The position numbers were made by a program, and so were the translations under genes. The notes beneath the pieces are model-generated. The model saw only the letters and a list, made by a program, of their open reading frames with translations, made no database searches and was not told the DNA's origin. From Escherichia coli (GTDB lineage Bacteria; Pseudomonadota; Gammaproteobacteria; Enterobacterales; Enterobacteriaceae), in NCBI RefSeq assembly GCF_050920415.1, contig NZ_CP169309.1: 64,000 bases of DNA; one strand, written 5' to 3'. Below are positions 8,820 to 52,390 of the stretch, piece by piece. Each line of letters begins with the position of its first letter. Within the stretch, counting starts at the first letter, position 1.

Positions 8820-8849
8820 AATTAGCTCTGATATTGTCAGATGATTCGG

Positions 8850-17206: not shown

Positions 17207-17223
17207 TATGCTGGATGCTCCCA

Positions 17224-18932: not shown

Positions 18933-18942
18933 TGCGCGTTCC

Positions 18943-20202: not shown

Positions 20203-20211
20203 GGGAACCCC

Positions 20212-21879
20212 TTATTGCAAACATTCTAATAAACGAGCCAGTTTTTTATTGCCGCCAGCGACTGGTGACCATTGGTAATGCACAACCGGTTTGCTGGCGC
20301 TTTGTAGTTCCAGCGCAAAGCTGCGTAATCCGATGTTAATCACGGCGACGTTTTCCAGTAATGACGGTGTGTGTGGCTGTGTGGCAGGCGAGAGCGGATG
20401 AATTAACGCCGCCGCCAGCAAGGTGGCTTCCGGCAGCGAACTCACTACCGCGATCCCTGCATCTTCCAGCGTGGCGATTTGTTGCGAGCGGCATTGCGGG
20501 TCACGTTCAGTGCCTGTCACCGTGGCAATGGCATACAGTGGTTGATTGTCTGGACGCGCGGCACAGGCTTTTTGCCAGGCGCTTACCAGCGAGGCTGCAG
20601 GATCGGTGGTCGCACCGAAGCCAATCACCACATCAAGCAGCAATACGCGCACTTGCGGTTTAGCGCCGAGATCGGCAATTAACTGGTTGCGTAAGGTTGG
20701 GTCGATCATCGGATGGGGACGCCCGACGGTGTAAAAATCATCGCCGAGGTCAATAATCTGGTGACCATCGGCGTCGAGCATCATGCCGTGATGATGGGTA
20801 TCGTCGGCTACCACGCCAAGATGCGCGGCAAGTAATCCCGCCGCTTCGGCGGCTAACGTACCGCCGGTATACAAGCCGCAAATAAGTCCGCTGCTGACAG
20901 GTGCTATTGCGTTACGTCGCGCCGTAACGCGTGAAAGCAGGCAAGCCAGGCGTGCAGCCTCATCCAGCGAGGAGGCAAACCAGACATTCTCGTCGCGGGC
21001 CACCGCCGGGATATAACCTAAAAACAGCGCCACCGTTGGTTTGCCGGTTGCTTTCATGGCATTAACAATTTTCAGACGCACAGCTTCGGCAGGCGGTTTT
21101 GAAACAAACGCCAGCACTTCGCTTTTCTCATCTACACTGAGCATTTCCAGCGCCGTTAGCGCACTGATGCCGCCCACGTCACGGCTGAGGTCGCGCCCGC
21201 CAAGACCAATCGCGTGAGTAATTCCCTCACCTGCCAGTGCAATCTGCGAACACAGTTCCTGAATCCCGGTACCGGAAGCGCCAATGACGCCAATGTTGCC
21301 TTCCGGCATCACGTTAGCAAAAGCCAGCGGCGTGGCGGCAATCATCGATGTACCGCAGTCCGGCCCCATCACCAGCAAACCTTTTTCCCGCGCGTGGGTT
21401 TTAAGTTGGATTTCATCTTCCAGCGTGACGTTATCGGAGAACATCATCACGTTGAGGTTGCGATCCAGCGCCTGGTTCGCCAGTTCCGCCGCATACTCGC
21501 CAGCCACTGAAATCAGCGCCAGATTGGCATTGGGTAATTTCTGACAGGCACTGTCCCAGCGACGCACCAGCGTCAACGCCTGGCTGCTGCCCGTTCCCTG
21601 CGCCAGTTGCTTTAGCGCCTCTTCAAGCTGCTGCATAATCGCCTGCGCGATCCCCGCATCCGCCGCTTCGCTACGAATTGCCACGCAAATATCGTTCGGC
21701 GTGGCGTTATTAAAATCGTCATGCCAGAAACCTGTGGTATCTAATAACGCTTTATTGGCGGGCGTACCCATCATTACGGAAACATCATCAACATTTTCTG
21801 ATTCGCTGAGTTTTCGTGAAATAATCATTAAACTGACCGAATCCTGAAAACACCCTTTTTTAATAAAGGCGTGGATCAT
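20212..21879 (-). CDS. fdrA: FdrA (succinyl-CoA synthetase alpha-like CoA-binding protein)
   Basis: 555 aa, recognised FdrA sequence. Confidence 0.85.
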   Translation of the reverse strand: MIHAFIKKGCFQDSVSLMIISRKLSESENVDDVSVMMGTPANKALLDTTGFWHDDFNNATPNDICVAIRSEAADAGIAQAIMQQLEEALKQLAQGTGSSQALTLVRRWDSACQKLPNANLALISVAGEYAAELANQALDRNLNVMMFSDNVTLEDEIQLKTHAREKGLLVMGPDCGTSMIAATPLAFANVMPEGNIGVIGASGTGIQELCSQIALAGEGITHAIGLGGRDLSRDVGGISALTALEMLSVDEKSEVLAFVSKPPAEAVRLKIVNAMKATGKPTVALFLGYIPAVARDENVWFASSLDEAARLACLLSRVTARRNAIAPVSSGLICGLYTGGTLAAEAAGLLAAHLGVVADDTHHHGMMLDADGHQIIDLGDDFYTVGRPHPMIDPTLRNQLIADLGAKPQVRVLLLDVVIGFGATTDPAASLVSAWQKACAARPDNQPLYAIATVTGTERDPQCRSQQIATLEDAGIAVVSSLPEATLLAAALIHPLSPATQPHTPSLLENVAVINIGLRSFALELQSASKPVVHYQWSPVAGGNKKLARLLECLQ

Positions 21880-37220: not shown

Positions 37221-38330
<1,110 letters not shown>

Positions 38331-38364
38331 TGAGGGACACGGTGCCTGTTTCATAAAGATCATT

Positions 38365-38782
38365 TATACCCGTCATACTTCAAGTTGCATATGCGTTGGC
38401 AAGTTATTCAGGGATAGCCGGATGAGTGACATCACCATCCGGCTTAAGATTCCATACTATAATAATTCGAGTTGCAGGACAAAACGCCAGTGGCGTTTTG
38501 AACAACGCTTGCGTTGACCCTGAAAGGGTGAGGCCTAAGGCCGAGTAACGCGACAGGCGAGTGACAAATTCGTCGGGAACGAATTTGACCAGCCTCTGGC
38601 TGGCCTTCGGTGAAAGGCATCCTGCCTTTCAGTCATCCCCAGTCACTTACTGGGGTGAGCGACAAATCCGCATGGAGCGGATTTGAACGCTGCTTGCAGC
38701 GGTCCCGTAAGGGGTGAGGCCCATGGATGGGCCGAATAACTCGCAGACGCAGCACATGCAACTTGAAGTATGATGGGTATAT
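38365..38782. repeat. ERIC/IRU-like composite intergenic element bounded by 30-bp inverted repeats
   Basis: Left arm tatacccgtcatacttcaagttgcatatgc, right arm gcacatgcaacttgaagtatgatgggtata; interior contains the ERIC core-like agtcacttactggggtgagcg and internally repeated ggtgaggcc...ggccga segments. Confidence 0.5.
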
Positions 38783-38939
38783 ACACAATGAACTTCAAGA
38801 CACTTGCTTCGGTATCTGGAAATTATCATTAATTCTGGATGCGACCAGCCTTGCTATATCTGGCAATGTTTCTTCAAAAACGTCGATATTGTATCCCAGA
38901 AATCTCACACACTGCTGAACCGGCATGTTCATTAATTAT

Positions 38940-39342
38940 TTATCCAGGCCATTTGCAATCAGTACCATCACTATTATATGCCTCAATATTTTCTTCAAAC
39001 TCAGTTATTTTTCCACTTTTCGATTTATAGTAAGAGCTATTAAATCTTGCACCCTGCGTAGCAACAACATACAATCCGTTGACTTTACATCCTATAACCT
39101 CACTCCATGTATATGTAAACTCTGAAGGTCTATCATCGAAAGTCACTTCCAATTTTTTCGTAAATGCAAGAGGTATGAAATTTGAGGATATTCCATAAAC
39201 CACATAACCTAAAACAACATCACCAGAAGATACTTCAACAAATTTTAAATTTATCTTCCCGAAACTAAAACAGCCAACCGTAGTTTGTTATTTAGCAAAT
39301 AAGAAAAAGGGCATCAAACAAAAAATTAAAACAAATAATTTA
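38940..39342 (-). pseudogene. Frameshifted remnant of a small exported protein
   Basis: ATG at 39342 opens a signal-peptide-like frame (MKVKLFVLIFCLMPFSYLL...) that stops after about 32 codons; a different frame continues as the 87 aa ORF 38940-39203. Confidence 0.3.
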
Positions 39343-40268
39343 ACTTTCATATCATTTACTCCAATTCAGTTATTCGCCTCTGTACAAAAGCACACACAGA
39401 TTTTGAATTAATGGCGTACAAAAACATAATCGGATGAAAATACCACACCGGAATATTACTGATATAGCGGGATCTTACTCATTCGCTAGACTGAAAATGC
39501 AATTGAACAGAAATTTCTTACTAGTGTTTTTATCAGATGATCGGAAAGGAAATCAACTCACTGGCAAGTATCATAAGCTCAAATTGGCATATTGTATATT
39601 CCCATAAATACTTTTATTTTTTGATTAACATACTCAATACTACACATCACTAATTGAGAGAAGATTAACTTCATCATCTTTGATTAGGTACGTTTTTTAA
39701 TTTTCAATGACGCATCATAAAAAAGGGCTTACCAAGTTTAACACTAATAACAGGATATAAAGAAAACATATTGCTATATGAATCCTTTGGCGATGTTTTG
39801 GTTATGGTAATCTTTCCTTCTTTCAAGTGCTCTGCTATTATATGAAATTGAATCGGTCTTGTTGCATCACTTACCCGCAATGGATTACCAGCGTAAGCTT
39901 CATATCCTCCACCATTATTCATATGTAAAATAGTGTATTCGTCATTTAAAAATGACTGCTTACTATCGTAGACTTGGTAGTATATATTACTTATATCAAG
40001 ATAAATTACTATAGAGATATACTTAATTTTTCATTTAGCATTAATGATGTATCCATGGAATCTATACATCTTTCAATATCAGTTATTTTTTCTTCTATAT
40101 ACGTAGCATAATTTTTTGGCACTGGCGTGTTTAGCCCTCATATACCCTCATTAACTAAGACACCATTTTGCTTGCTTTTTACATTGTAATAAAGACAATC
40201 AATATTGAATTTATTATTTTTATATTTCAGTGTTGTATATACAGTAAAATCATGCAGCGAACGCCCAT

Positions 40269-40544
40269 CTAAAACAATTGCGGGCGTGTCAGAAAAAAGT
40301 CAAATGAATAAGATGGATTATTTTCATAATCAGTCATAAATTTCATCTTTCTTATTTCATGATCAACGATCGCATAGATCTCATGATTAGATTCATCATA
40401 TCCATAAATGATTTCACCACCAGTACTGGCAGTAGCAGTAGCACTACTACAAATCAACATAATTACAAGTACATATCTAGTCAAGTTGAAAATCCTTAGG
40501 GGCAGATGATGTTTTTTCCAAGATGGATTGAAATTTTTCAACAT
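40269..40544 (-). CDS. Small hypothetical protein, possible orphan exported protein
   Basis: 91 aa ORF in an AT-rich decayed region; internal hydrophobic stretch. Confidence 0.25.
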   Translation of the reverse strand: MLKNFNPSWKKHHLPLRIFNLTRYVLVIMLICSSATATASTGGEIIYGYDESNHEIYAIVDHEIRKMKFMTDYENNPSYSFDFFLTRPQLF

Positions 40545-40854
40545 AAGAATCCATTAATTGCTTCTGATATTTTTCATTAATTATTTTTCGCGTATTATTA
40601 TATTAAATTTTATCACTGTTAATATATGTGGGGATTTTTACTCGTAAAAATCCCCGCCTCAATTCCCCAAATCATAATTGATACAGGACACAACTCTAGC
40701 AATGGTATCGTGAATAGTTTTCTTTAATAAGGCACGTCTCAATTCTTGAACATAAATTCGAATTATTTAGTAAAAAAACATCATCCCTGGGAGTATTACC
40801 TATTTTTGTATAATGCTATATTTATAGTAAACAATTCACAAGAAAATATTATTA

Positions 40855-41826
40855 CTAATATTTATATTCCTCCCACTGAGCACCGTATCGATGCTTTAAC
40901 AGTTTAACTTTAATTTCATCATATGTTTTAACTTTACTACCATCAATCTTAAGGCGAATTTTATTCGAGGTGATATCAACATAATTTCTATTTTCCCCAC
41001 CCGCAGGGAAAAAATCAAACATAAAATTAGACATGTTTTGTTCTTTTTTCATGAGAGCTCCATACTCACACATGTCATTTATATTTTGTATGTATGGAGT
41101 GCCCCCCTGACATGATGGATAATGAAAATCAATTATAGTAAAAAGCGATTTATTGACACTCCTCTGAAAGAACCACTTATTATTTACAATACGATAGGTT
41201 AAAGATTTAAATGTATACCAGTGACTTCCTGGAAGAAAAGAGTAAGCTTCATTAAGATTGACAGTAAATACCTTAGTTTCTCCAGAGGAAAGCTTTACCC
41301 ATTCTGATTTTATATCACAATTATCGCCCATACCAAAATAAAGCTCATCATTGGCATCATCCTCAACAAAATCACATATATTGGTTGCGGAAGGACGGAA
41401 TTTCAGATAGAAACCACTTGTGGATATTAAAAAAGAATCCTCACATAAAGGAGAAAAAAAATAAGGCTCCGATGTGTGTGAGGAGATAGGTAATAATCGT
41501 CTATGAATGAAATTTTCGCTACCCCCCAAATTTGTAAAACTTATTTTTGCTAACACACGAGAGTCAATTTGCTTAACGGTTAATCTAACATCAACATCAA
41601 ACATATTACGATTTGGCAATTTTTCCTCGACTCCGTCAGTGTAATGTGATAACTCAAGTATATTGTCCTCAAGAGTCATCGAATTTAATTTTTGTTCGGA
41701 AACATATTGTGCAATAACCTCATCATTGCAGTATCCATGAAATGAAATAAACATTAGCACTGCAATCTTAACTAATCTCAAAATACTTTTCAATATTGTA
41801 TGCATTATTAAAAACCAGCGGGTCAT
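40855..41826 (-). CDS. Putative immunity protein 2 (exported), paralogue of the 43491-44312 gene
   Basis: 323 aa; N-terminal hydrophobic signal-like segment; conserved segments shared with 43491-44312 (FTN...S, FxPG..Y, F.KS..Y+.VN+KWF); directly downstream of the HExxH gene. Confidence 0.6.
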   Translation of the reverse strand: MTRWFLIMHTILKSILRLVKIAVLMFISFHGYCNDEVIAQYVSEQKLNSMTLEDNILELSHYTDGVEEKLPNRNMFDVDVRLTVKQIDSRVLAKISFTNLGGSENFIHRRLLPISSHTSEPYFFSPLCEDSFLISTSGFYLKFRPSATNICDFVEDDANDELYFGMGDNCDIKSEWVKLSSGETKVFTVNLNEAYSFLPGSHWYTFKSLTYRIVNNKWFFQRSVNKSLFTIIDFHYPSCQGGTPYIQNINDMCEYGALMKKEQNMSNFMFDFFPAGGENRNYVDITSNKIRLKIDGSKVKTYDEIKVKLLKHRYGAQWEEYKY

Positions 41827-42582
41827 GTTTTGATTTTAATTCTTTTGCATTGGCAATTTCTCTTTTTTTTCCCAAATCGTTACTGCTTAATCCACCATAA
41901 TACTGTTCTCCATCCCAGATAATAAAAAGGTGAGATAACTCATGGCATAATGTGGAGACTCGAGAGTTTTCTCCCGTTGGATTTTTACATGTGAAATTTT
42001 GTAAGATATCTATAGATATTCTTTCTCGATACTCTAACTTTAAAAGTTCAGCCTTCGACTTATTTTTATACTCACTACTTTGGTATTGGGGCCGATTTAG
42101 ATCTATATGAGTCGTCTGAGCAGCCGGTATACGGGCTGAACCATTGACTAAATTGGTATAATTTTTAAAATTGCCATATATTAGTTGTACATTATCTTGC
42201 GTTCGAGTTTCAATGATCAAGCTATCACAAATCATGATCATTCTGTAAACCCCCTCTTTTATAAAAGTATGTGCGTCAATATTCTTGGTTTGTGGAGTGA
42301 AGTTCCCATTATTATCTGACTTTTGACAAGGAGCATAGTGTTCCATTGTTATAATAGCATCACCTGGTAATCCAAATATATCTTCAAAATTTTTCTGATC
42401 TGCTGGTGTCCATGCTTCCAGATTTTTGCTCTGATATTCAATACTCGCTTTGTTTCTTCCAAAGCAGGCGTTATCATGTTGTAAAATTGATCAGTAACCT
42501 TTGCTTCTTTTTTACATATATTGCCTTTTTGAGTTACCCCTTGTGAACTTCCTTTGTTATTATTCATAAACACCTCCCTCAA
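41768..42582 (-). pseudogene. HExxH-motif putative type VI effector, copy 2, disrupted by a -1 frameshift in an A5 run
   Basis: Two ORFs (42349-42582 and 41768-42346) in different frames both align to the intact paralogue at 44336-45127; HELSH at 41930-41944; frames switch at the T5/A5 run 42423-42427. Confidence 0.7.
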
Positions 42583-42975
42583 TCATATCTATACTTTGAT
42601 GCAATAGCCTGACTTTTATCGTCAGCTCACTGTCAGTGATAAATATTTCCGTATACCCATCCTTATCCGTTTCCCCTCGCGCTTGTGTGCCGTCCTCAAA
42701 AAAGGCAATGTAGCGTGTTTCTGAATACGGTATCCCGTCATCGTCTGTAAAATGAAACTGGAGGGTGTATTTCTCAGGTTCATCCTTATCTTCATTGTCG
42801 TTCCCAGAATCATTTCCATCGCCACCACCGACCCCGCCATTGCCTTGCCCGCCCTCTGCACCACCATCTTTATCACTACCTTCATCCGTCAGTGCCTCCA
42901 GCACGCCCGGTTGCAGTGTCGGTACCGGAGTCCCCGGACTACCCCCACCATTCAGATTTATCTTCGGCCCCCAGG
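42560..42975 (-). pseudogene. Orphan 3' fragment of a vgrG gene (last 140 codons or so)
   Basis: Translation GPKINLNGGGSPGTPVPTLQP...DEPEKYTLQFHFTDDDGIPYSETRYIAFFEDGTQ matches the C-terminal region of the full vgrG at 45117-47522; DNA 42897-42970 matches 45463-45536; no upstream vgrG body. Confidence 0.75.
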
Positions 42976-43335
42976 GAAAGATTACGAAAGCCCGCTCCCC
43001 GCAAGGACTGACGCCAGATACTTTCTGTCCATGGCTGCTTTTCGCATCTTACGTCTTAACCCTGCCTTGAATACCTTATCATTCGTCAAAATATTAATAG
43101 CGATGTGCCGTATCCCTGAAAATAATTCTGCTGCATTTCCTCTTCTTATTTTGCAGTCGTCTTCATTCATTACCACGTCCAGACGCCAGTGCAGCTTATT
43201 CTCCACGTGCCCGTGGTTTCGGATTGCTGTGGCGAACTTCTCTGCGGTTAAATCAGCAGAACTGATATAATATCTGACCGTCATTTCTGGCTCTTTCTTT
43301 TGTTCTGCTATTATGGACCGAAAGGAGACTGCCAC
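42972..43335 (-). mobile_element. H-repeat (ISAs1-family) transposase 3' remnant
   Basis: 117 aa ORF ending ...[28 protein letters not shown], recognised as the C-terminus of H-rpt/ISAs1-type transposases; no N-terminal part present. Confidence 0.65.
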
Positions 43336-43490
43336 GCATAATTTCTTCAGCCCTTTCCATTCAAACGTGAAATCAATAAGTTCATCAGGGACATCGCAAA
43401 CAATATGAAGACGGATTTCTTCTCTGCCGTGACTAAAATGCGAATTATTTAGTACAAAAAAAGCGGCGCACCTTGTTCTTTCCCAGATTC

Positions 43491-44312
43491 CTAATATGGC
43501 AACTTTAAGTTATCGCCGTCTATACTTATAGAAATTTCATCAGGGGTGACGTAAATAGAATTTTTTTCATCCTCAATTGCCCATAACTGATTAATAAAAA
43601 AGTGTTTTTTTTCATCTAATAACAAATTATCACATGTAGTAAAATTATTAATATCAAAAAGATCATCAGCACAATTAATTTTTAAATTTAAAAAATAAAG
43701 AAAAATATTATTGATTGATTTGAGTGTAAACCACTTGTCATTAACAAATTTATAGCCAGATGATTTTATAAAATAATAATTATCTCCTGGTATAAAGGCA
43801 TACATATCATTTAAGGTTATACTCAACAAAAAACTACGACCTGGTTTAATAGTATTCCACCGTTCAGGATTCGTATTAATTTCAAAAGGACATGAACCAC
43901 CTAAGTAGTCCAACGTGATATTCCCAGAGTTGATTCTGAATGGTTTTTTGCATATTGCATCATATTCATCTCCTTTTCCATCTTTTACTTTCATAGGTAG
44001 ATAATATTTAGAAAAAAAATACGTGGTAGAGCTTTTGTTAGTAAAGGTTATGTTAGCAAAAATCCTGTTATTTTTTTTACTCATAGCTAATTGAGCATTG
44101 ACATCCGCTATATAATTTATATGATTACATTTTTTCTTACACTCATCATAATTTTCGATAGGATAAATTAATGGCCTTCCTTTGATATCTCTCTCAAGCC
44201 CAAACCCGTATTTTTTTATTAAAACCATTTCATCTGCAGTCGATTGAAAGGAATAGAAAAATATAATATTTACGATTGTCATTATTATGATTTTTTTTAT
44301 AGCTTGCAGCAT
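43491..44312 (-). CDS. Putative immunity protein 1 (exported)
   Basis: 273 aa, hydrophobic N-terminus ([16 protein letters not shown]); immediately downstream of the HExxH gene; paralogue of 40855-41826. Confidence 0.6.
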
Positions 44313-44335
44313 TAATATATTTCTCGACTTATTAG

Positions 44336-45127
44336 TTAATGGAGAAGTGCTTTTTCTAATTCCGCTATTTTTTTCTTAACTAAATTGCTTAATATTTCAT
44401 CATTAATCGAGTCTATCTCACTTTCAATTAATCTTATTTCAAAATATCTTTCTATGTTATATGCATTCTCAAATATTTGATCTTTTTGTTTAGAGATCAG
44501 TTTAGTTGCAATACGGATATGTTCGTCATATGAAACTTCATCCTCTTTGCACGTTGAATATTTATCAGTAGTTGTATAATCCTGTGACCACATACCACCT
44601 TTTTTATTATCCCTATAATACCACTGAATATGAGACATTTCATGACATAAAGTAGCAACATGAGAATCCTTTCCCGTTACTGGATTTTTTTTGCCATCTC
44701 TATACTCAAATTTTGCGCCTATGTTAATTATATAGGGCATATCCTTACTTGGGCTGACGAATGCTGCAAATTCATTACAACCTGTATAATTTATAAAACT
44801 GCTCATTGTTAAATCATTAGCTATAATCATTAATCTTCTCACACCATCCATCATAAGAAATCTAGCATTCATGCGCCTGCCTGTATTATGTCCATATTTT
44901 CTTATATTAACTTCCTTATTTCCTTTAACACCAAAGATCTTACTGAAATCATATTCCTCCTGTGCTCCCCATCTCAAAAGATCATCTGCTCTTTTTATCA
45001 AAACCAACTTTTGTGCCTTACGAGCCTTATCAATCATTATTTTAAAATGATCAGTTATTTTTTGCTCTTTCACACATTCTTCTGGCTCTGGCTTTGGTTG
45101 TCCAGAAGTTTGATTATTATCGTCCAT
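44336..45127 (-). CDS. HExxH-motif putative zinc-metallopeptidase-like type VI effector, copy 1 (intact)
   Basis: Start ATG 45127 with AAGGA RBS, overlapping the vgrG stop; HEMSH at 44630-44644 (catgaaatgtctcat on the sense strand); no signal peptide; low GC. Confidence 0.7.
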   Translation of the reverse strand: MDDNNQTSGQPKPEPEECVKEQKITDHFKIMIDKARKAQKLVLIKRADDLLRWGAQEEYDFSKIFGVKGNKEVNIRKYGHNTGRRMNARFLMMDGVRRLMIIANDLTMSSFINYTGCNEFAAFVSPSKDMPYIINIGAKFEYRDGKKNPVTGKDSHVATLCHEMSHIQWYYRDNKKGGMWSQDYTTTDKYSTCKEDEVSYDEHIRIATKLISKQKDQIFENAYNIERYFEIRLIESEIDSINDEILSNLVKKKIAELEKALLH

Positions 45128-47522
45128 AGTGTCCTTCCATTGAGAGAAAATCATCATTCGCAAATAGCAACTTCACTTTAATTTCATGTTTGCTAGATAC
45201 AAAAAAACGCTCTGTATACCCCTCTTCATCCGTTTCTCCGCGGGTCTGCGTGCCATCCTCAAAGAAGGCAATGTAGCGGGTTTCTGAATACGGTATCCCG
45301 TCATCGTCTGTAAAATGGAACTGGAGAGTATATTTTTCAGGTTCATCCTCATCGTCACCTCGATCATCACCACCACTTCCGGTCACGCAGTTCCCTCCAG
45401 AGTTTTCATTTTCTTCTCCGGAATCACTGCCATCACCACTCTTCTCATCCCCCAGTGTCTTCAGCACCGCCGGTTGCAGCGTCGGTACAGGCGTCCCCGG
45501 ACTGCCTCCCCCGTTCAGATTTATCTTCGGCCCCACTATATCCACGCCCCCTGAATGGATGACCACAAACGAGCCACCCAACTTCAGGCTTATCCGGCTG
45601 CTGCTCTCCAGCACGATATCCCCGTCCACCTTTATCCCCAGCGCACCACTCACCTTCCTCGCCAGGTCGCCTTTCACCTCCAGGCTGTGTTTTCCCTCCA
45701 CCAGGCTGATGTGGTTTCCTGTCGTTTTGTGCTCCTGCTTCCCTTCCACCGTCACCTTTCGGTCGTTTCTGACGTACAGACCGTCATCGTGGCTGACGTT
45801 CACCCGCCGGTCGTTCGTCACCTTCAGCGTCTGGTCGTTGCGCACCGTGATGCTCCGGTCATGGGCCACCGTGATACTCTGGTCGTGGCCCCCTTCTTTT
45901 CTGGTGCCGACCTCAACCGTCTGCCCCTTCACCACCCTTATCTTCTGGTCGTTACCGATGGTCTCCGTATGGTCATGCTTCACGTCCGTCGTCCGGTCGT
46001 TAAGCACCTCCGTGTCCATGTTCTTCTGCGCGTGGATATACACCTGCTCACTGTCCGTCGCATCCTCGAAACGCAGTTCATTAAAGCCGCTTCCTTTATA
46101 GGTCTTCGAGCGGATGGTCATCTGCGTCCGCGTGCCCGGTAAATCCCCCGGTGAACGGTTATCTTCATGGTAGGTCCGCCCCGTCACAATGGGCTGGTCC
46201 GGGTCTCCGTTCAGAAAGTCCACTATCACTTCCTGACCCACACGCGGTATCGCCAGATTGCCGAACCCCGGTCCCGCCCATGCCTGCGACACCCGTATCC
46301 AGCATGAACTCTCCTCCGTCATCCCGTGATAACGGTCCCAGTGAAACTTCACCCGTACCCGGCCATGCTCGTCGCAGAATATCTCCTCGCCCTTCGGCCC
46401 GGTCACGATGGCACTCTGCGGGCCGTCCACCTTCGGCTTCGGCAGCGGCGCGTGACGCCACGTCCTGTCTGCCGGTATCACCTCAAACTGGTTACTCAGC
46501 GTCGTCCCTTCACCGTGACTGCCGTGCAGCGCCTGCGGCTGTTCTCCCCGCAGTGTGCTTCCCACAACCTGCCATTCCCGGTTCAGCGTATCCGACGGGT
46601 GACCCGACAGGGTAAACCGCGTTCCCGGCCACAGCCGCGCCGTGTTACACACCCCGCTCGCCGTCTCCGCCCCGTTCCGCCACCCTTCCGTCTGGTAACG
46701 CGCAAAATCCTGGCCATGCTGCTCATCCTTGAAACGCCCCGGATAATCAAATATCTCGTACTGCGTTCCCTGCCCGTTCAGGCTCTCCCCGTCATGGCTG
46801 TAGTACCCCGGCCACCCCGGCACTTTAAACGTATAATCCTGCGTCTCCACCGACGCCACGCTTATCTGCGCACGGTAACGAAACTCACTGATGTACTCCG
46901 TCGTTCCCCCGGTCGTCGTGTTCGGGTTAAACGCCAGCGCCCCCATTCCCGTCAGCCCCGCCACGTCATCACACACCGCCAGCTTCTGTTCCGGCCCGTC
47001 CTGACTGCAGCGTTCATAAAAGAAGATACCTTCCTCCGCCCACAGCCGGGTCAGGAACGCCAGGTCGCTCTCCCCGTACTGCACGCAGAACTCCCGCGCC
47101 GGATGGTCTTCATAAAACAGCGGCATCCACGCCGTCACCCCGTTCTCTCTCAGAAGCTGTGCTGATATCGTCCCGATGTCCTGCTGCTGGAAGATACGGA
47201 AGTTCTGCCGTAACCCTGCCCGCCACAGCGGCGGGCTGATGCTCAGGGAATAACGCATCTGCCAGTCGTTGTTCTCACCGAGCTGCACCTCCGTCACGAT
47301 ACCGCTGACGTAACGCTGTGCAGTGTCGCCCTGCCAGACCGTCAGCACCGCGCTTTTCTCCAGAAAATCCTCCGCCGTCAGGTCGGACAGCCCGCTGGCG
47401 ATATCCACATCCAGGATGAACGGTGTGCAGTGGTGCTGGTACAGACGGAAGCTCACCACCGCCGTCGCCATCTCCACGATGTCGTCCACCGACAGCGTGA
47501 AACGTAATCCTTCTGAGGACAT
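45117..47522 (-). CDS. vgrG: Type VI secretion spike protein VgrG with acidic Gly/Asp-rich linker and C-terminal extension domain
   Basis: 801 aa from MSSEGLRFTLSVDD; gp27-like N-terminal region, gp5-like repeats (VKHDHTETIGNDQKIRV...), then GGGSPGTPVPT, acidic linker and a C-terminal domain of about 60 aa. Confidence 0.9.
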   Translation of the reverse strand: MSSEGLRFTLSVDDIVEMATAVVSFRLYQHHCTPFILDVDIASGLSDLTAEDFLEKSAVLTVWQGDTAQRYVSGIVTEVQLGENNDWQMRYSLSISPPLWRAGLRQNFRIFQQQDIGTISAQLLRENGVTAWMPLFYEDHPAREFCVQYGESDLAFLTRLWAEEGIFFYERCSQDGPEQKLAVCDDVAGLTGMGALAFNPNTTTGGTTEYISEFRYRAQISVASVETQDYTFKVPGWPGYYSHDGESLNGQGTQYEIFDYPGRFKDEQHGQDFARYQTEGWRNGAETASGVCNTARLWPGTRFTLSGHPSDTLNREWQVVGSTLRGEQPQALHGSHGEGTTLSNQFEVIPADRTWRHAPLPKPKVDGPQSAIVTGPKGEEIFCDEHGRVRVKFHWDRYHGMTEESSCWIRVSQAWAGPGFGNLAIPRVGQEVIVDFLNGDPDQPIVTGRTYHEDNRSPGDLPGTRTQMTIRSKTYKGSGFNELRFEDATDSEQVYIHAQKNMDTEVLNDRTTDVKHDHTETIGNDQKIRVVKGQTVEVGTRKEGGHDQSITVAHDRSITVRNDQTLKVTNDRRVNVSHDDGLYVRNDRKVTVEGKQEHKTTGNHISLVEGKHSLEVKGDLARKVSGALGIKVDGDIVLESSSRISLKLGGSFVVIHSGGVDIVGPKINLNGGGSPGTPVPTLQPAVLKTLGDEKSGDGSDSGEENENSGGNCVTGSGGDDRGDDEDEPEKYTLQFHFTDDDGIPYSETRYIAFFEDGTQTRGETDEEGYTERFFVSSKHEIKVKLLFANDDFLSMEGHYGR

Positions 47523-47813
47523 ATAAACCCCATAGCTACCGCACTCATGGTGCAAACCCTACAGAATTATAAGAAAGACTTAAGTGAGATATCCGTCAGA
47601 TAGCAACTATTAGGAAAATATTTATATACATTTCATGAATACATTCATTAATACCGAGATGTTTTTGTCTATATAAACAGAGCAAGCTAACGTCCTCACT
47701 CCATGAAAGAAACTACGTAGGGGCCTTTCGGTCCATAACAACTTTTTCCCTGTTATATCCTGACGTTCTGGTCTACTGGTGTAGTCATGCATATTGCAAC
47801 GTTCTACCCATGG

Positions 47814-47900
47814 AAAGATAAATAAAGCCAGCTCTCCGCAAGGACTGAAGCGAGGTGCTTTCTGTCCATAGCTGCTTTTCGCAACTTACTCCTTAACCCA
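47814..47900 (-). mobile_element. Short H-repeat (ISAs1-family) 3' remnant, direct repeat of 42972-43060
   Basis: ctctccgcaaggactgaagcgaggtgctttctgtccatagctgcttttcgcaacttactccttaaccc aligns with the 3' end of the 42972-43335 remnant; encodes ...[19 protein letters not shown]. Confidence 0.55.
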
Positions 47901-48055
47901 ACACTGAATTTCTTATGATTTGTCACAGTATGAACTTTTAATTTCATACATTGCTCTTTAGTCAATAGAAGAAAAATAAGCACCCTCTCCCAAACGACAC
48001 AAATAACCTGCAAATGGGAAATGACTTATTACTTAGAAATTTGCAGAGATATAAA

Positions 48056-48337
48056 TCACGAGATATATCCACCTTTTGAGTTAACAGTTACAGACGTTAT
48101 AACATTATCTTTTATCCAGATATCAACAAAAAAGTCCTTACCACAATAAAGACATTCACAATATCCTTCAGAGATAAAGTTGTCCTTAAGTTTATTTCTG
48201 GTTATATTAATAAGTTTATCGCCAGGATTGTAATGTACTAAATTTCCAGATGGCACAAACATCTCAATTTCACACTGTCCTGACGTTCCACATCGAGGGC
48301 AAACGCACCATGCTTTCAATAAATCATAATTCGACAT
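48056..48337 (-). CDS. Small Cys-rich hypothetical protein (possible zinc ribbon)
   Basis: 93 aa with CPRCG and CECLYCG; AAGGT RBS upstream of the ATG at 48337; AT-rich. Confidence 0.5.
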   Translation of the reverse strand: MSNYDLLKAWCVCPRCGTSGQCEIEMFVPSGNLVHYNPGDKLINITRNKLKDNFISEGYCECLYCGKDFFVDIWIKDNVITSVTVNSKGGYIS

Positions 48338-48387
48338 TATATTACCTTAATTTATTTCACATCAGCATCCCCCCTTGCAAACCACAA

Positions 48388-48744
48388 CTAAACTATTCCC
48401 ATAAAATACAACGAGATAATTTTACTGTTAAACGTACATTCACAAAACTCAGGGGAAGAAAAATGACCATCAGTCAAAAATAAAGATAGTTTGCTTAGTG
48501 CGTAATCAATTGAATCAAGCGACAAGTATAATTTTATTACTAGTGAGTTCTGTATCAGGACATCATTTTCATTGGGGGATTGTAAAAGTAATAAATTTTT
48601 ATACGCTACAGGTGATCTGTTTTCCAGTCTAATAGGTTTGCTTGCTTCCGTCTCCAATAAACTATAAAGAGCACAAACCATCTCATGAGCATCATCTTTC
48701 TCAAAATGTAAATGAAACCCGCCCAGAGATTTATTAGCAATCAT
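48388..48744 (-). CDS. Hypothetical protein
   Basis: 118 aa ORF, weak RBS, AT-rich accessory context. Confidence 0.4.
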   Translation of the reverse strand: MIANKSLGGFHLHFEKDDAHEMVCALYSLLETEASKPIRLENRSPVAYKNLLLLQSPNENDVLIQNSLVIKLYLSLDSIDYALSKLSLFLTDGHFSSPEFCECTFNSKIISLYFMGIV

Positions 48745-48841
48745 AATACGTTTCTAAAGTTGATTTGAAATTTTGCATTTCATGCTCATCAAAAAAATAA
48801 ATATATTTTAACTACAAAGCAAACATCACAGCGCATAGCGG

Positions 48842-49057
48842 TTAATATTCTACCTTAACGACTTTCATTCCTCTTTCAATCATACCATTAATTAATTGAT
48901 AATACTCTTTATCCCCTACATCTACTATTAGAATATGTCCGGTAAGTTCATTGATGAATAAATACTCAGGTTCCTCATCTGTACCAGCATTTGAAATAAC
49001 CCAACCTGGATCAGTACCATCTATAAAAAACTCCCACTCTTTAAAATTAACACTCAT
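48842..49057 (-). CDS. Small acidic hypothetical protein (candidate orphan immunity protein)
   Basis: 71 aa; strong AAGGAGG RBS 6 nt upstream of the ATG. Confidence 0.5.
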   Translation of the reverse strand: MSVNFKEWEFFIDGTDPGWVISNAGTDEEPEYLFINELTGHILIVDVGDKEYYQLINGMIERGMKVVKVEY

Positions 49058-49169
49058 TTAATCCTCCTTTTTATACTCGCAAGAAAAGGAGAGTATCGTT
49101 TCTAACTCTGAAATAAAAGTATGATAAAAGACAGGACCTGGCCTCATTGAATGTTATTTCTCAATTCTT

Positions 49170-49275
49170 GATAGTTTTTGCCGGATGCGGCTTGAACGCT
49201 TATCTGGCCTACACAATCTTGCAAAATCAATATATTGCACGCTCTTCGTAGACCAGATAAGCGTAGCGCATCAGG
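49170..49275. repeat. REP-type palindromic repeat
   Basis: gccggatgcggc...gcttatctggcctac and its partner gtagaccagataagcgtagcgcatcaggc in inverted orientation. Confidence 0.5.
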
Positions 49276-49292
49276 CAATCTAACACCTGTCA

Positions 49293-51707
49293 TCACCCCG
49301 CAAACTGCCTGAACAGCGCCTTACCCTTAACCAGTCGCGCACCCAACCAGCCGCCGAAAAGCGACAGCAGCAGTGCACCGCTACAAGGCAGAACAATCCA
49401 CAATCGCCAGTCTGGCTCCCACGGGAAATCAAACACTTTTGATTGCAGTACCGCCAGTGCCGTTTCCGCACCAATTGCGGCCACCAGGCCGGAGACAAAC
49501 CCGAGCATGGCGAACTCACACCACAATGTCGTGCGCAGCAGTTTTTTGCCCGCACCGAGAGTGCGCCACACCACCAGCTCCTGATGACGCTGACGCATTC
49601 CCACCTGCACCTGTGCCAGCAACAGCAACATACCGCAGGCGGTGACCAGCACCACCATCACTTCCAGCGCCCGACTTACCTGCTCCAGCACCTGACCGAC
49701 CTGTTTTAAAATCGCGCCAATGTCTAACAGGCTAATGGTCGGGAACTGGCGGTTGAGTTGCGTCAACATGCCGTTGCCATTCTCCCAGCGGAAACTGGTA
49801 AGCCAGCTCTGCGGTTGCCCGTCTAATGCCCCTTCCGGGAAAATAAAATAGAAATTAGGCCGCAGACTTTCCCAGTCCACTTTGCGCAGGCTGGTCACTT
49901 TAGCGCGGAACTCCTGGGTATCGCCCATAAAGGTGACGGTATCGCCGAGGGTAACATTTAAGCGTTTCGCCAGCCCCTCTTCCATCGATACTTCATCGGC
50001 TTTTGGCGGCCAGTTACCAGCGACAATCGGATTATGATCGGGCCGCGTATTTTGCCAGGTGAGATTGAGTTCGCGGTTGAGCGCCTCATCTTCATTGCCT
50101 TCTGTCGGCTTGCCGTTAATCGCCGTCAGCCGCGCCCGCACCACCGGATAAAACGATTCCGGGACTATCTGATGTTCCGCGAGGAACGCTTTTAGCGGAG
50201 TAACCTGTTCTGTGGCGATGTTGATTAAAAAGTAGTTAGGACTTTCTGGCGGTAGCTGCTGTTGCCAGCGATCGAGCAGATCGCCACGCAACACCAGCAA
50301 CAGTGCCAGCAGCATAAAGGAGAGCGAAAATGCCGAAAGCTGGCTTAACGTTGACCACGGCTGACGTAACAGGCGGCTAACCGCCAGGCGCAGAGGCAGC
50401 GATTTCAGCGTCATGCGGCGAAGTACATTCAGCAGCATCCAGCCCAGGACACCGCACAGCAAAGCTAGTACTATCGCGCCCGCCAGCACCGCCCAGAGCA
50501 GCATACTGCCGCCCATCAGTCCGGCGAGCAGCAGCACAACCACCACACTGACAATCGGCAGATAAAACTTGAGCGGCCAGACGTTCGCTACCACATCATT
50601 ACGTAATACGCGTAAAGGCTGCGTTGCCAGCAACAAGCGGTACGGTCGTAGCCCCACCAGCAGCGAGATGACCGTCATGGTGCCAAGCGCCCACAGCCAT
50701 GGCCAGAGGCTGGCAGGCGGTAGTGCGGCAGGCAGAACGGGCTTGAGCAGTACCATCAACACGTTTTCGAACAACAGGCCTATCGCCCCGCCGGTAACGG
50801 CTGAAAGCGCCAGCACCATCAGCCACTGACCGACGATTAGCTTACGCAGTTGCGCTCGCCCAGCCCCCAGCGTTTTGAGGATCGCCACCAGATCGTAGCG
50901 ACTACGACAGTAATGATTCATCGCCACCGCCACCGCTGCCACTGCCAGCAGCAAGGTCAGAAGCGCCGAAAGCAGCAGAAACTGTTGCGAGCGTTCCATC
51001 GATCGCCCCAGCGCGCCTTCGTCCTGTTCCAGACCGTACCAGCGTTGTTCGGGTTTAAGCTGGGGTAACAACCATTTCTCATAGCCGTCGAGCTGGTTCT
51101 CGCTGCCGCCGAATTTATAGCGCCAGGTGACCCGACTCCCCGGCTGCACGGCTCCGGTTTTATCGACATCCGCCAGATTCATCATCAGACGCGGAGCCAT
51201 CTGGAAGGGGTTAAAACCGGAATCCGGTTCCTGAATCACTTCTCCGGCAATCCGCAAGGTGGCATCGCCCACGTCAATGGTGTCGCCTGTTTTCAGGTTA
51301 AGCAGTGCCATCAGGCGTGGGGCCAGCAATACGCTGCCCGCCTGCGGTTTCAGGCCAGGGGGATTGGTTTGCAGATCGCCATACATCGGGTAGATATCAT
51401 CCACCGCTTTAACATTCGCCAGCTGCGGCGTATCGCCCGCAAAAGTCATCGTGGCGAAAGTCAGCTGCTTGCCGACTTTCAGGCCGCGCTTTTGCGCTTC
51501 CTCCAGCCACGCTTGCGGCACTTCGCGTGAACTGCGCAACGCCCGATCGCCCGCCATAAACTCACGGCTTTGCTGGCTTAAGCCCTTCTCCATGCGATCG
51601 CTGATATTGCCCAGCGCCAGCACGCAGGCCACCGCCAGGCTTAGCGCCAGCCAGACAATTAATAGCGACGGCGAGCGCCATTCGCGCCAGAACCAACGTG
51701 CAATCAT
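49293..51707 (-). CDS. ybbP: ABC transporter permease (FtsX-like, duplicated)
   Basis: ORF 49293-51755; start at MIARWFWREW gives 804 aa and a 4-nt overlap with the ybbA stop. Confidence 0.9.
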   Translation of the reverse strand: MIARWFWREWRSPSLLIVWLALSLAVACVLALGNISDRMEKGLSQQSREFMAGDRALRSSREVPQAWLEEAQKRGLKVGKQLTFATMTFAGDTPQLANVKAVDDIYPMYGDLQTNPPGLKPQAGSVLLAPRLMALLNLKTGDTIDVGDATLRIAGEVIQEPDSGFNPFQMAPRLMMNLADVDKTGAVQPGSRVTWRYKFGGSENQLDGYEKWLLPQLKPEQRWYGLEQDEGALGRSMERSQQFLLLSALLTLLLAVAAVAVAMNHYCRSRYDLVAILKTLGAGRAQLRKLIVGQWLMVLALSAVTGGAIGLLFENVLMVLLKPVLPAALPPASLWPWLWALGTMTVISLLVGLRPYRLLLATQPLRVLRNDVVANVWPLKFYLPIVSVVVVLLLAGLMGGSMLLWAVLAGAIVLALLCGVLGWMLLNVLRRMTLKSLPLRLAVSRLLRQPWSTLSQLSAFSLSFMLLALLLVLRGDLLDRWQQQLPPESPNYFLINIATEQVTPLKAFLAEHQIVPESFYPVVRARLTAINGKPTEGNEDEALNRELNLTWQNTRPDHNPIVAGNWPPKADEVSMEEGLAKRLNVTLGDTVTFMGDTQEFRAKVTSLRKVDWESLRPNFYFIFPEGALDGQPQSWLTSFRWENGNGMLTQLNRQFPTISLLDIGAILKQVGQVLEQVSRALEVMVVLVTACGMLLLLAQVQVGMRQRHQELVVWRTLGAGKKLLRTTLWCEFAMLGFVSGLVAAIGAETALAVLQSKVFDFPWEPDWRLWIVLPCSGALLLSLFGGWLGARLVKGKALFRQFAG

Positions 51708-52390
51708 GCTTCCTCCTGCAACTGCCCGTTCACCAGCCGTAAGCAGCGGTCGCAACGTGCCGCCAGTTGAAGGTCGTGGGTCACCATAATCAACGTGGTG
51801 CCATGTTCACGGTTGAGAGAAAACAGCAGGTCGGCAATTTTATCGCCTGTCTGGCGGTCAAGGTTGCCGGTGGGTTCGTCGGCAAACAGCACATCAGGCC
51901 GACCGTTAAAGGCACGCGCCAGCGCCACTCGTTGCTGTTCGCCGCCGGAAAGCTGTGCCGGAAGATGATCAAGACGTTTACCCAGCCCTAACTGTTCGAG
52001 CAACGCTTTCGCCCCATTACGACTTTCCACGCTACTCTCACCGCGCAGCAGCGCCGGAAGCTCGACGTTTTCCAGCGCGTTAAGGGTAGGAATTAACATA
52101 AATGACTGAAAAACAAAGCCTACGTGCTTCGCGCGCAACTTTGCCCGCGCTTCTTCGTCCATATTATGTAGCGGTTGTCCCACCAGATTTACTTCGCCAC
52201 TGCTGCCGTCATCCAGTCCGGCGAGGATCGCCAGCAACGTTGACTTACCCGATCCCGACTCGCCTACCAGCGCGATGGTCTCGCCACGTTTGACAACCAG
52301 CTCAACTCCGGTGAGGATGGAGAGTTCATGCTCCCCCTGACCGACGGACTTCTTAAGATGATGAACTTCAACAATGTTTTCCGCTGGCAT
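51704..52390 (-). CDS. ybbA: ABC transporter ATP-binding protein
   Basis: 228 aa with Walker A GESGSGKST and signature LSGGEQQR. Confidence 0.9.
   Translation of the reverse strand: MPAENIVEVHHLKKSVGQGEHELSILTGVELVVKRGETIALVGESGSGKSTLLAILAGLDDGSSGEVNLVGQPLHNMDEEARAKLRAKHVGFVFQSFMLIPTLNALENVELPALLRGESSVESRNGAKALLEQLGLGKRLDHLPAQLSGGEQQRVALARAFNGRPDVLFADEPTGNLDRQTGDKIADLLFSLNREHGTTLIMVTHDLQLAARCDRCLRLVNGQLQEEA

Follow-up and report, generated by a model that had tools for sequence, protein, structure and literature searches.

Direct vgrG and H-rpt repeats in an Escherichia coli type VI secretion island: probably mostly scars of past cassette exchange

Why does one vgrG locus of Escherichia coli carry the 3′ end of its spike gene twice, together with remnants of an H-repeat (H-rpt) element that all point the same way? 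The initial annotation of the 64-kb window (the whole stretch of DNA analysed here) saw in these direct repeats plausible substrates for cassette exchange or duplication, and suggested that vgrG and Rhs modules use the same site and mechanism. Are the repeats a working device, or are they what earlier events left behind?

A vgrG island of two paralogous modules

The locus is a 10.8-kb island at 38353..49182 (strand unassigned), reaching from the mnmH stop codon to the REP element beside ybbP, with limits set by alignment against the empty site of strain 536. The ybbP-mnmH gap is the RhsD site in K-12, where it holds rhsD-ybbC-ylbH-ybbD; it is empty in strain 536 and in an O9:H10 strain, and many strains have no insert there. 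A tblastn search with an Rhs core protein found no YD-repeat Rhs core in the 64-kb window; with no Rhs core ORF present, an Rhs element was rejected as the identity of the island, and the RefSeq label ‘type IV secretion protein Rhs’ on the orphan ORF of one genome is a misnomer.

Judged by its gene content, the region is an E. coli type VI secretion (T6SS) vgrG island of two paralogous modules of the spike/toxin/antidote type. Each consists of a vgrG C-terminal region, a predicted M35-like effector and a putative immunity gene, closed by a same-orientation remnant of H-rpt (ISEc1, ISAs1 family). The order along the island is vgrG, effector 1, immunity 1, H-rpt copy b, orphan vgrG fragment, effector 2 and immunity 2. 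Each effector thus lies directly 3′ of vgrG sequence and is followed by its putative cognate immunity gene, the gene order of T6SS cargo modules, and in both modules and their relatives the effector start overlaps the stop of the vgrG reading frame before it. The upstream module, joined to a complete vgrG, would be the active cassette, and the downstream module, with the last 137 vgrG codons only, is an orphan, probably the older of the two.

The full-length vgrG (tssI) occupies 45117..47522 and, like all the features described below, is on the minus strand. It encodes 801 aa, matches TIGR03361 (E 9e-177) and is named tssI by RefSeq in the relative L001. Pfam recognises Phage_GPD, Phage_base_V and Gp5_trimer_C domains, giving the protein both a gp27-like and a gp5-like part, and solved VgrG1 structures are matched at E 5e-92. 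The body of the gene (45535-47522) is a rare allele, with at most 86% identity to any vgrG outside the island-bearing genomes, and the 3′ end (45117-45534) codes for a Gly/Asp/Ser-rich linker and a small C-terminal domain. GC content is 0.60 in vgrG, against 0.28-0.33 in the cassette genes.

Effector 1 (44336..45127, 263 aa), whose start overlaps the vgrG stop, carries an HEMSH motif and would be an M35-like zinc peptidase. RefSeq names it ‘M35 family metalloendopeptidase’, and its toxicity is predicted from the HExxH motif and a weak Pfam Aspzincin_M35 match (E 0.0045). Directly after it comes putative immunity protein 1 (43491..44312, 273 aa, hydrophobic N-terminus); a profile search returned no family match for this protein, and position and paralogy suggest its immunity role. 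Effector 2 (41768..42567) is a paralogous HELSH peptidase (29% identity to effector 1, E 2e-24), frameshifted in the window by a 1-nt deletion at 42427 and intact (266 aa) in L001. Its homologues at 56-66% identity occur in E. coli, Phytobacter, Enterobacter and Salmonella, and those of the first three directly follow a full-length or contig-truncated vgrG with the same 8-nt overlap. Putative immunity protein 2 (40855..41826) is an intact 323-aa ORF paralogous to immunity protein 1 (23% identity, E 1e-21). The orphan module today combines an intact immunity gene with a decaying effector.

The orphan vgrG 3′ fragment (42560..42971) comprises the last 137 codons, from GPKINLNGGG onwards, of which a 114-aa ORF is annotated; its frame (42970 to 42560) is 59% identical to the last 137 VgrG residues (E 4e-50). 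A 5′-truncated vgrG 3′ copy thus lies downstream of the intact gene with a different toxin/immunity set, which is the layout of a C-terminal displacement or orphan array. Some 74 bp of this repetition (42897-42970 and 45463-45536) had been noticed before. The repeat is real, but its length was understated: self-BLAST aligns 42648-42971 with the intact-gene copy at 45211..45534 over 324 bp (76.6% identity over 329 aligned columns, E 2e-61), including conserved blocks of 147 nt at 87% and 90 nt at 86% and one 38-nt identical run.

H-rpt remnants and the orphan junction

Copy b (42972..43486) lies between the two modules. The initial annotation took it for a transposase C-terminal remnant of the ISAs1/H-rpt family at 42972-43335; the family is right, and the element is more than a C-terminal piece, keeping both ends. 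Positions 42985-43443 match NCBIfam NF033564 ‘ISAs1 family transposase’ (E 5.8e-35) at profile positions 204-314 of 314, the C-terminal third of the transposase only, so that the ORF at 42982-43335 does have ISAs1 similarity. The protein is 96% identical to residues 226-378 of K-12 YdcC. In the DNA, 42970-43434 matches the K-12 ydcC H-rpt at 98.1% identity, and 43434-43460 matches the left-end region of that element; the two matches together make copy b an internal-deletion derivative with both termini. YdcC residues 1-225 are missing, with ~776 bp deleted relative to ydcC, and at both termini copy b agrees with the 1293-bp K-12 ydcC element, its repeats being CAGGGAAAGATTACG at 42972 (right) and ...TTCTTTCCCAG ending at 43486 (left). 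The left end lies 4 nt past the immunity-1 stop codon and the right end abuts the orphan vgrG fragment. The same deletion junction is found in 219 E. coli genomes, including L002 and L019, which have it at the RhsE site.

Copy a (47809..47934), 283 bp upstream of the vgrG start, is a diverged right-end (3′) piece that confirms the second same-orientation remnant reported earlier at 47814-47900. Self-BLAST aligns it with 42970-43097 at 80.5% identity over 128 nt (E 2.6e-28), and it shares 79% identity with the K-12 ydcC H-rpt, corresponding to YdcC residues 339-377 at 56%. In a megablast search of complete E. coli genomes it was seen only in the 3 that bear the island. A further remnant, copy c (40679..40789), absent from the initial annotation, was found by blastn against the K-12 H-rpt and consists of the left end and a short internal piece. 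It is made up of 40679-40717 and 40725-40789, 65 nt past the immunity-2 stop and oriented as copies a and b, with matches to K-12 H-rpt positions 916-954 (90%) and 1224-1278 (84%).

None of the three copies has the complete transposase gene of an autonomous element; a and c are short fragments, a retaining only the right end and c only the left. No flanking direct repeat (target-site duplication) was found at copy b, at the L002 copy or at K-12 ydcC. That copies a and b are twins of one duplication, or the arms of a composite transposon, was rejected, given their 80% identity and the defects of both.

At 42971/42972 the sequence reads ...TTCGGCCCC / CAGGGAAAGATTACG, the right side being the exact H-rpt terminal repeat by comparison with the K-12 ydcC element ends. 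The direct fusion of a vgrG fragment to an H-rpt end, proposed earlier, is therefore exact to the base. Fusions of this kind recur. In an RhsC locus (L016) the main toxin is followed by an H-rpt whose right end is fused to a 5′-truncated orphan with an rhs fragment, and in Escherichia sp. MOD1-EC7003 an H-rpt right end is fused to an orphan vgrG at a different vgrG position. Exact H-rpt right-end/orphan junctions are thus seen at two distinct positions in vgrG and at another in rhs.

Do the repeats serve frequent switching, with the vgrG 3′ copies fusing the intact vgrG to the orphan module and the H-rpt copies excising or duplicating the active one? Orphan-rhs activation in Salmonella provides a precedent (PMC3967940), the vgrG copies do share the 38-nt identical block, and the closest relative has an intact orphan effector. 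However, the Salmonella main and orphan rhs genes that recombine share 95% over 522 bp (PMC3967940), and the homology here is far weaker: 77% over 324 bp for the vgrG pair, and 80% for the H-rpt pair, in which identical runs reach 13 nt at most. In the window, effector 2 carries a frameshift. No recombinant junction was seen in the 3 island-bearing complete genomes, where the unrearranged junction is 100% identical, or in the 6 orphan-effector contigs inspected; four of the six reach upstream of the orphan fragment, and in those the junction is unrearranged. Such switching is therefore highly improbable, and the pairs within the window are poor recombination substrates; the earlier suggestion of cassette exchange fares better, as the mosaic described next fits exchange via both repeat families.

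The mosaic of the active cassette

The closest copy of the active cassette lies at yncG-yddH (the K-12 RhsE site), a location established in two genomes, beside the same H-rpt deletion derivative, whose right end there faces pptA, as does that of the full-length ydcC H-rpt in K-12. Against the copy in L002, the 2.0-kb cassette core (43487-45481) is 99.3% identical (14 differences in 1995 nt), in contrast to 95.3% for H-rpt b (24 differences in 515 nt; Fisher p 1e-8); from 45482 to the vgrG start there are 426 differences in 2044 nt, the vgrG body being ~79% identical. The identity break falls somewhere from 45405 to 45481, a stretch within the vgrG repeat. In the comparison with L019, 11 differences fall in the 344 nt of H-rpt b nearest its right end and 14 in the other 1857 nt, a count that leaves out 5 gap columns at the end of homology; the contrast (p = 0.004) was computed with those columns counted against it. 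The differences of H-rpt b from K-12 ydcC and from L019 sit in the same stretch, 42977-43315. The core has a different, less diverged history than its flanks, that is, H-rpt b and vgrG from 45482 upward.

Among the 5426 complete genomes surveyed, 3 of which have the island, ~625 carry this vgrG 3′ type, and outside the island genomes none exceeds 95% identity across the break. Between the window and its closest relative, 9.7 kb differ by one indel and 26 SNPs within 196 bp of vgrG, a clustering that points to ongoing recombination in the gene.

How did the cassette arrive? The best explanation overall, and on balance a probable one, is import of the cassette next to an H-rpt/orphan junction that already existed. 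Homologous recombination would have brought in the active cassette through one crossover in the conserved vgrG 3′ segment and a second at or inside H-rpt. In both vgrG and Rhs islands, the H-rpt at the distal end of a cassette would then provide portable homology. The junction at 42971/42972 would be older: an H-rpt end would have reacted there, by inserting into a second vgrG or by IS-mediated deletion of adjacent DNA, and left the older effector and immunity genes behind. Recombination in two repeat families is suggested by the three levels of identity to L002, in core, H-rpt and vgrG body. The import reading also draws on the three same-orientation H-rpt remnants, two of them with the left end directly past an immunity gene; on the H-rpt derivative that rides with the cassette at the RhsE site; on effector 2 relatives that follow intact vgrG elsewhere; on the fusions in the RhsC locus and MOD1-EC7003; on the paralogous anatomy of the two modules; and on the want of a close match across the break among the ~625 carriers. 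Two points run counter to it. The divergence of H-rpt b could reflect later gene conversion by other copies of this multicopy family, and a 53-nt segment beside the junction has three different alleles in the main copy, the orphan and L002, so that no simple donor/recipient assignment fits perfectly. As no pre-import allele of the island was found in the 5426 genomes, we infer the order of events.

Alternatively, the vgrG repeat and the H-rpt/orphan junction could have been made in one event. A circular or linear piece comprising a vgrG 3′ segment, effector 1, immunity 1 and H-rpt would integrate, through one crossover between homologous vgrG 3′ sequences (the circle model of Jackson et al. 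2009) or by homology-facilitated illegitimate recombination, and push effector 2, immunity 2 and the 3′ end already in place further downstream. The identity break inside the repeat and an orphan that begins exactly where the repeat begins are as expected, the model has been proposed for rhs (PMC2935791) and for V. cholerae vgrG-3 (PMC5361080), and the variable orphan length that it predicts is seen, the fragment starting at residue 665 here and ~604 in L036. On this model, however, the orphan should open with 53 donor-like nt, whereas these match the single known donor type at just 79% and are equally far from the main copy; the excess divergence of H-rpt b is also left unexplained, and we consider this one-step origin unlikely.

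It is also conceivable, though rather improbable, that two complete modules once stood in tandem (vgrG1-eff1-imm1-H-rpt-vgrG2-eff2-imm2) and that the H-rpt right end deleted into vgrG2, no displacement being involved and the mosaic reflecting later gene conversion. Complete vgrG-effector-immunity modules do occur in tandem in E. coli (L024), a truncated gene abutting an exact IS end, as at 42971/42972, is what IS-mediated adjacent deletion leaves, and in Phytobacter a truncated vgrG is preceded by a remnant of a different IS family. Yet the truncation point would then lie by coincidence (~1 in 10) within 130 nt of the main-copy identity break, at the start of the conserved C-terminal block, and H-rpt b, with no transposase gene, would need a helper copy or have to act before the internal deletion that it shares with the RhsE-site copies.

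H-rpt and cassette turnover in related systems

The island resembles the C-terminal displacement arrays of Rhs loci, which likewise have a main carrier followed by strings of orphan core fragment, tip and immunity gene (Jackson et al. 2009, PMC2935791; Koskiniemi et al. 2014, PMC3967940): a GC-rich intact carrier, AT-rich toxin and immunity genes, then a 5′-truncated copy of the carrier 3′ end with an alternative set. The RhsD and RhsE sites and H-rpt elements are common to Rhs arrays and the vgrG cassettes here. Unlike in Rhs arrays, the carrier is VgrG and the toxin is a separate gene rather than a C-terminal tip. The association of H-rpt with Rhs loci thus holds, in the RhsD site of the island, the cassette copy at the RhsE site and the layout of the RhsC locus; vgrG and Rhs modules do share a site, and for a shared mechanism the argument is one of analogy.

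In V. cholerae, T6SS modules likewise arrive with a stretch of conserved vgrG whose length varies, and older genes are moved downstream. The module and a short variable VgrG C-terminus vary together there, and the chief route is homologous recombination in the conserved flanks (Kirchberger et al. 2017, PMC5361080). The orphan arrays there usually keep immunity genes only, whereas this island also retains an old vgrG 3′ end and effector; IS elements are outside the Vibrio model, and here every module ends in H-rpt. The E. coli vgrG islands with VT toxin modules (Ma et al. 2018), as far as PMC6730261 and PMC10711316 describe them, are likewise stand-alone vgrG, effector and immunity genes outside the main T6SS cluster.

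The H-rpt/ISEc1 elements of K-12 (ydcC, yncI, yhhI, ybfD) have the same association with Rhs sites, and copy b shares 98% identity and the terminal repeats (CAGGG[A/C]AAGAT...) with that of ydcC. Unlike the K-12 elements, all three copies here are defective, copy b being a 515-bp both-ends derivative that lacks the catalytic region. H-rpt has reportedly never been seen to transpose (PMC3032704).

IS26 forms translocatable units and IS-mediated adjacent deletions from one IS copy and adjacent cargo, with junctions exactly at the IS terminus. The single copy with adjacent cargo and the exact terminus junction here would be a mechanistic analogy to IS26; its circles, twin IS copies and target duplications are not in evidence at this island.

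The direct repeats, then, appear to be conserved parts common to both modules, marks left by module turnover and not a device in their own right. They are real and mostly scars of past cassette exchange, a known route of weapon diversification. A wider reading, which we put forward tentatively and regard as doubtful, is that H-rpt, far from being a bystander at Rhs and vgrG loci, may regularly form the distal limit of mobile T6SS toxin cassettes, cassette and H-rpt moving as a unit between Rhs sites (here from RhsE-type to RhsD) via portable homology or via end reactions in trans, in which circles form, one end inserts or adjacent DNA is deleted. The two loci cease to be homologous exactly at the H-rpt right end, and H-rpt left ends lie directly past the immunity genes in at least two cassettes. 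If true, such a boundary role would account for the link between H-rpt and Rhs elements, a puzzle for 30 years.

The vgrG island and its two cassettes

At the RhsD site, the window carries a T6SS vgrG island with an active and an orphan cassette, each of which ends in an H-rpt remnant. The island is AT-rich, measures 10.8 kb (approximately 38353-49182) and lies between mnmH/selU (37236-38330, plus strand) on the left and ybbP (49293-51755, minus strand) on the right. In K-12 the ybbP-selU gap is occupied by rhsD-ybbC-ylbH-ybbD, and in strain 536 and an O9:H10 strain it is empty, with 140-700 bp from mnmH to ybbP. Of 5426 complete E. coli genomes, only 3 have the island of the window. At each of its edges there are REP-like inverted repeats (38365-38409 and 38734-38781; 49178-49278); the one on the ybbP side is also present in strains with an empty site and marks the island boundary. 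In L001, the closest relative of the window, an IS2 (7865-9194) is inserted at the point corresponding to 39594-39599, where the window has none, and in L003, another island genome, a group II intron (18928-20616) separates ybbP from the island.

In minus-strand order, the island starts with three small ORFs and finishes with further small ORFs. Between them, all on the minus strand, are H-rpt remnant a (47934 to 47809), vgrG (47522 to 45117), the M35-like effector 1 with the motif HEMSH (45127 to 44336), the putative immunity gene 1 (44312 to 43491), H-rpt b (43486 to 42972), an orphan vgrG 3' fragment (42971 to 42560), a paralogous effector 2 with the motif HELSH that is frameshifted in the window (42567 to 41768), a paralogous immunity gene 2 (41826 to 40855) and H-rpt remnant c (40789 to 40679), a third copy besides the two of the initial annotation. 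GC content drops from 0.60 in the body of vgrG to 0.49 in the two vgrG 3' regions and to 0.28-0.34 in the genes of the cassettes. A terminator-like hairpin (21-nt inverted repeat with a 2-nt spacer, 40621-40664) adjoins remnant c. No Rhs core is present anywhere in the window. The 114-aa ORF of the orphan vgrG (42560-42904; L003 12162-12506) is labeled “type IV secretion protein Rhs” by RefSeq in one genome and “hypothetical protein” in another.

No firm Pfam or NCBIfam match was obtained for the effectors, the immunity proteins or the small ORFs, and the VgrG C-terminal domain had no match in a sequence search of solved structures. The small AT-rich ORFs (71, 118, 93, 91, 72 and 87 aa, within 48056-49057 and 38940-40544), three of which gave no match in a family search, may be orphan immunity genes left by older cassettes.

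Direct repeats and the proposed import of the active cassette

The direct repeats were tested by self-BLAST of 38300-49300. The vgrG 3' sequence is indeed present twice (42648-42971 and 45211-45534; 76.6% over 329 columns, E 2e-61), and the repeat is about four times longer than the 74 bp initially reported. Remnants a and b are homologous and in the same orientation, as had been proposed, with 80.5% identity over 128 nt (42970-43097 and 47807-47934; E 2.6e-28), well beyond a few bases. The comparison also gave two short inverted-repeat matches and a 25-nt match (40754-40778 and 43436-43460) that corresponds to H-rpt left-end sequence behind both immunity genes. The ORF at H-rpt b encodes the C-terminus of an ISAs1-family transposase (NF033564, E 5.8e-35; 96% identity to K-12 YdcC residues 226-378), which confirms the remnant annotated at 42972-43335. 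Compared with the complete 1293-bp ydcC H-rpt of K-12, H-rpt b is an internal-deletion derivative that has kept both terminal repeats. Its right terminus, CAGGGAAAGAT..., begins at 42972, directly behind the last vgrG-homologous base, so that the vgrG fragment is fused to the H-rpt end with no gap. The orphan reading frame opens at GPKINLNGGG, the start of the C-terminal extension behind the gp5-like spike.

The observations of the initial annotation were thus confirmed, and its interpretation was borne out in part. Its suggestion that the repeats serve as recombination substrates fared poorly for the pairs within the locus. The H-rpt pair bracketing the module contains no identical run longer than 13 nt, and the vgrG copies have runs of 38 and 21 nt; in the Salmonella main/orphan rhs pair that recombines, identity is 95% over 522 bp (PMC3967940). 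All inspected junctions are unrearranged: the junction is found at 100% identity in the three complete island genomes (3/3) and in four of six inspected effector 2 contigs, namely those that reach upstream of the orphan fragment. Switching between the vgrG copies within the locus is possible in principle, but, given the short identical runs, the unrearranged junctions and the frameshifted orphan effector, frequent switching is unlikely, and switching via the H-rpt pair very unlikely. A reading of H-rpt a and b as twin IS copies, from a composite transposon or a cointegrate, was ruled out because they are only 80% identical, whereas the cassette and its donor are 99.3% identical.

The mosaic structure of the locus was measured by alignment with L002, an E. 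coli locus that carries the cassette at the RhsE site. The cassette core (43487-45481) has 14 differences in 1995 nt (99.3% identity), H-rpt b has 24 in 515 nt (95.3%; Fisher p 1e-8 against the core), and from 45482 to the vgrG start there are 426 in 2044 nt (79%). The identity break on the vgrG side lies between 45405 and 45481, within the repeated segment, and no genome outside the island carriers has more than 95% identity across it. A second RhsE-site locus, L019 (PapM-32-1), has 11 differences in the 344 nt of H-rpt b nearest the right end and 14 in the remaining 1857 nt, excluding five gap columns at the end of homology (p = 0.004 with those five columns counted against the contrast). 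Most simply, the pattern would reflect transfer of the 2-kb effector-immunity cassette by homologous recombination, one crossover falling within the conserved 3' block of vgrG and the second at the H-rpt or inside it. Later gene conversion among H-rpt copies could account for part of the mosaic pattern; it is conceivable because H-rpt is multicopy and the differences of H-rpt b from K-12 ydcC and from L019 lie in the same stretch.

The allele of the vgrG body is rare: its identity to any other sequence does not exceed 86%. Recombination in vgrG has also been recent, as over 9.7 kb nothing separates the window from L001 except a 1-nt indel and a cluster of 26 SNPs at 45669-45864. The 26 SNPs fill 196 bp of the vgrG gp5-repeat region and resemble a gene-conversion tract from another vgrG paralogue.

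Origin of the orphan module

Homologues of effector 2 with 56-66% identity are present in E. coli, Phytobacter, Enterobacter and Salmonella. In Phytobacter, Enterobacter soli and other E. coli they lie directly behind a full-length or contig-truncated vgrG with the same 8-nt overlap, and the orphan therefore descends from a once-complete module. Relative to L001, a 1-nt deletion at 42427 frameshifts effector 2 (41768-42567, minus strand), and the neighbouring immunity gene 2 (40855-41826) is intact. In strain MFDS1022581, which also has the island, effector 2 is not disrupted. Displaced modules usually end as in the window, with a decayed effector beside an intact immunity gene (PMC5361080).

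How was the vgrG body of the orphan lost? Since the joint with H-rpt b is an exact IS terminus, an IS end reaction rather than homologous recombination probably created it. In the preferred order of events, the vgrG body would have been lost through H-rpt insertion or IS-mediated deletion, and the cassette would have been imported afterwards. Alternatively, the older module may have been displaced in one step, by a circle or by homology-facilitated illegitimate recombination, as in published models (PMC2935791; PMC5361080). It was also considered that two complete modules once stood in tandem, an arrangement that does exist, and that one was truncated by H-rpt. The 53 nt adjoining the junction could not be assigned to donor or resident, as the main copy, the orphan and L002 have three different alleles; the mechanisms therefore cannot be told apart there, and no route is proven. 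No pre-insertion allele or recombinant turned up among 5426 complete E. coli genomes: with the orphan cassette, upstream flank, vgrG body or junction as query, only the same three island genomes matched.

H-rpt boundaries at vgrG and Rhs loci

The proposal of shared sites for vgrG and Rhs modules has direct support, with the island at the RhsD site and the cassette at the RhsE site. The vgrG 3' type of the active cassette occurs in about 625 genomes, and in the two inspected the cassette lies between yncG and yddH, the RhsE site of K-12. The same deleted H-rpt is attached to it there, and the deletion junction is found in 219 genomes. In L019 the right end of the H-rpt faces pptA, as does that of the full-length ydcC H-rpt in K-12. 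In L002 an H-rpt 5'/left-end remnant (approximately 17100-17330) lies between yncG and the PAAR gene upstream of vgrG; the RhsE-site module thus has H-rpt pieces on both flanks.

A similar layout recurs elsewhere. At the RhsC locus of K_EC180 (L016), the main rhs gene is followed by a full-length H-rpt, the right end of which is joined directly to a 5'-truncated rhs core fragment; an immunity-like gene comes next. A solo left-end-like sequence, GGATGATCTTTCCCTA (10505-10530), distinct from that full-length H-rpt further on, lies just downstream of the presumed immunity ORF of the main rhs gene. In Escherichia sp. MOD1-EC7003 (L036, 2461-4700), the right end of an H-rpt is joined directly to a vgrG fragment with its start near residue 604, about 61 codons further upstream than in the window. 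Behind the fragment come a third M35-like effector and a paralogous immunity gene, both of the same families. The H-rpt of this locus is itself split by a group II intron. In L019 (approximately 10790-10830), a 29-nt left-end piece is fused 48 nt before a vgrG stop; upstream of it are a PAAR-like toxin and a small ORF, and vgrG is cut to a 255-nt N-terminal piece.

H-rpt is not the only IS with remnants at such joints, since the T6SS cluster of Phytobacter ursingii (L012, 9900-10410) has an IS3-family orfA remnant at the equivalent position, between a vgrG-effector-immunity module and a 441-aa 5'-truncated vgrG with its own cassette. Nor does displacement require H-rpt, as K-12 RhsD, and presumably RhsA, have orphans without an adjacent H-rpt.

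Site-specific insertion of H-rpt into vgrG was considered, as a BLAST match running 12 nt past the IS end into the RhsC locus hinted at a target motif. The sequence proved only loosely similar, five other right-end flanks had no common motif, and the different vgrG position of the joint in MOD1-EC7003 also contradicts it. Right-end flanks were surveyed in species-representative genomes (19 H-rpt loci, 17 usable). Nine had open frames of at least 53 codons from the junction, as expected for random insertion into genes; no enrichment is therefore claimed, and MOD1-EC7003 is the sole second example used. In Pseudocitrobacter (L035) and Citrobacter (L030), the H-rpt right end recurs 17 nt further on in a second, truncated copy.

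For rhs, it is established that modules are displaced and orphans retained (PMC2935791). The same holds for the vgrG clusters of V. cholerae, where the incoming module brings along conserved vgrG of variable length and a short C-terminus of VgrG varies together with the module (PMC5361080). Islands with vgrG are also on record in E. coli (cited in PMC6730261). The locus of the window is of the same kind as the rhs and V. cholerae systems; less familiar is the consistent H-rpt boundary, which it shares with Rhs loci. The searchable literature held nothing relevant on H-rpt or ISAs1 with vgrG or an orphan, and H-rpt transposition has never been observed according to one genome paper (PMC3032704). 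That the cassette and its H-rpt form a mobile unit seems doubtful.

In E. coli, stand-alone vgrG toxin islands and Rhs elements have common chromosomal sites and a common layout, in which an intact carrier is followed by the current cassette, H-rpt and then a displaced older cassette. The 2-kb effector-immunity cassette, common to two Rhs sites at 99.3% identity and with both breakpoints in repeat families, provides a dated example. On its own, the locus instructs more than it surprises. Should the link with H-rpt hold in general, an IS whose association with Rhs has never been explained would gain a testable role, and it would become easier to predict which T6SS cassettes can spread.
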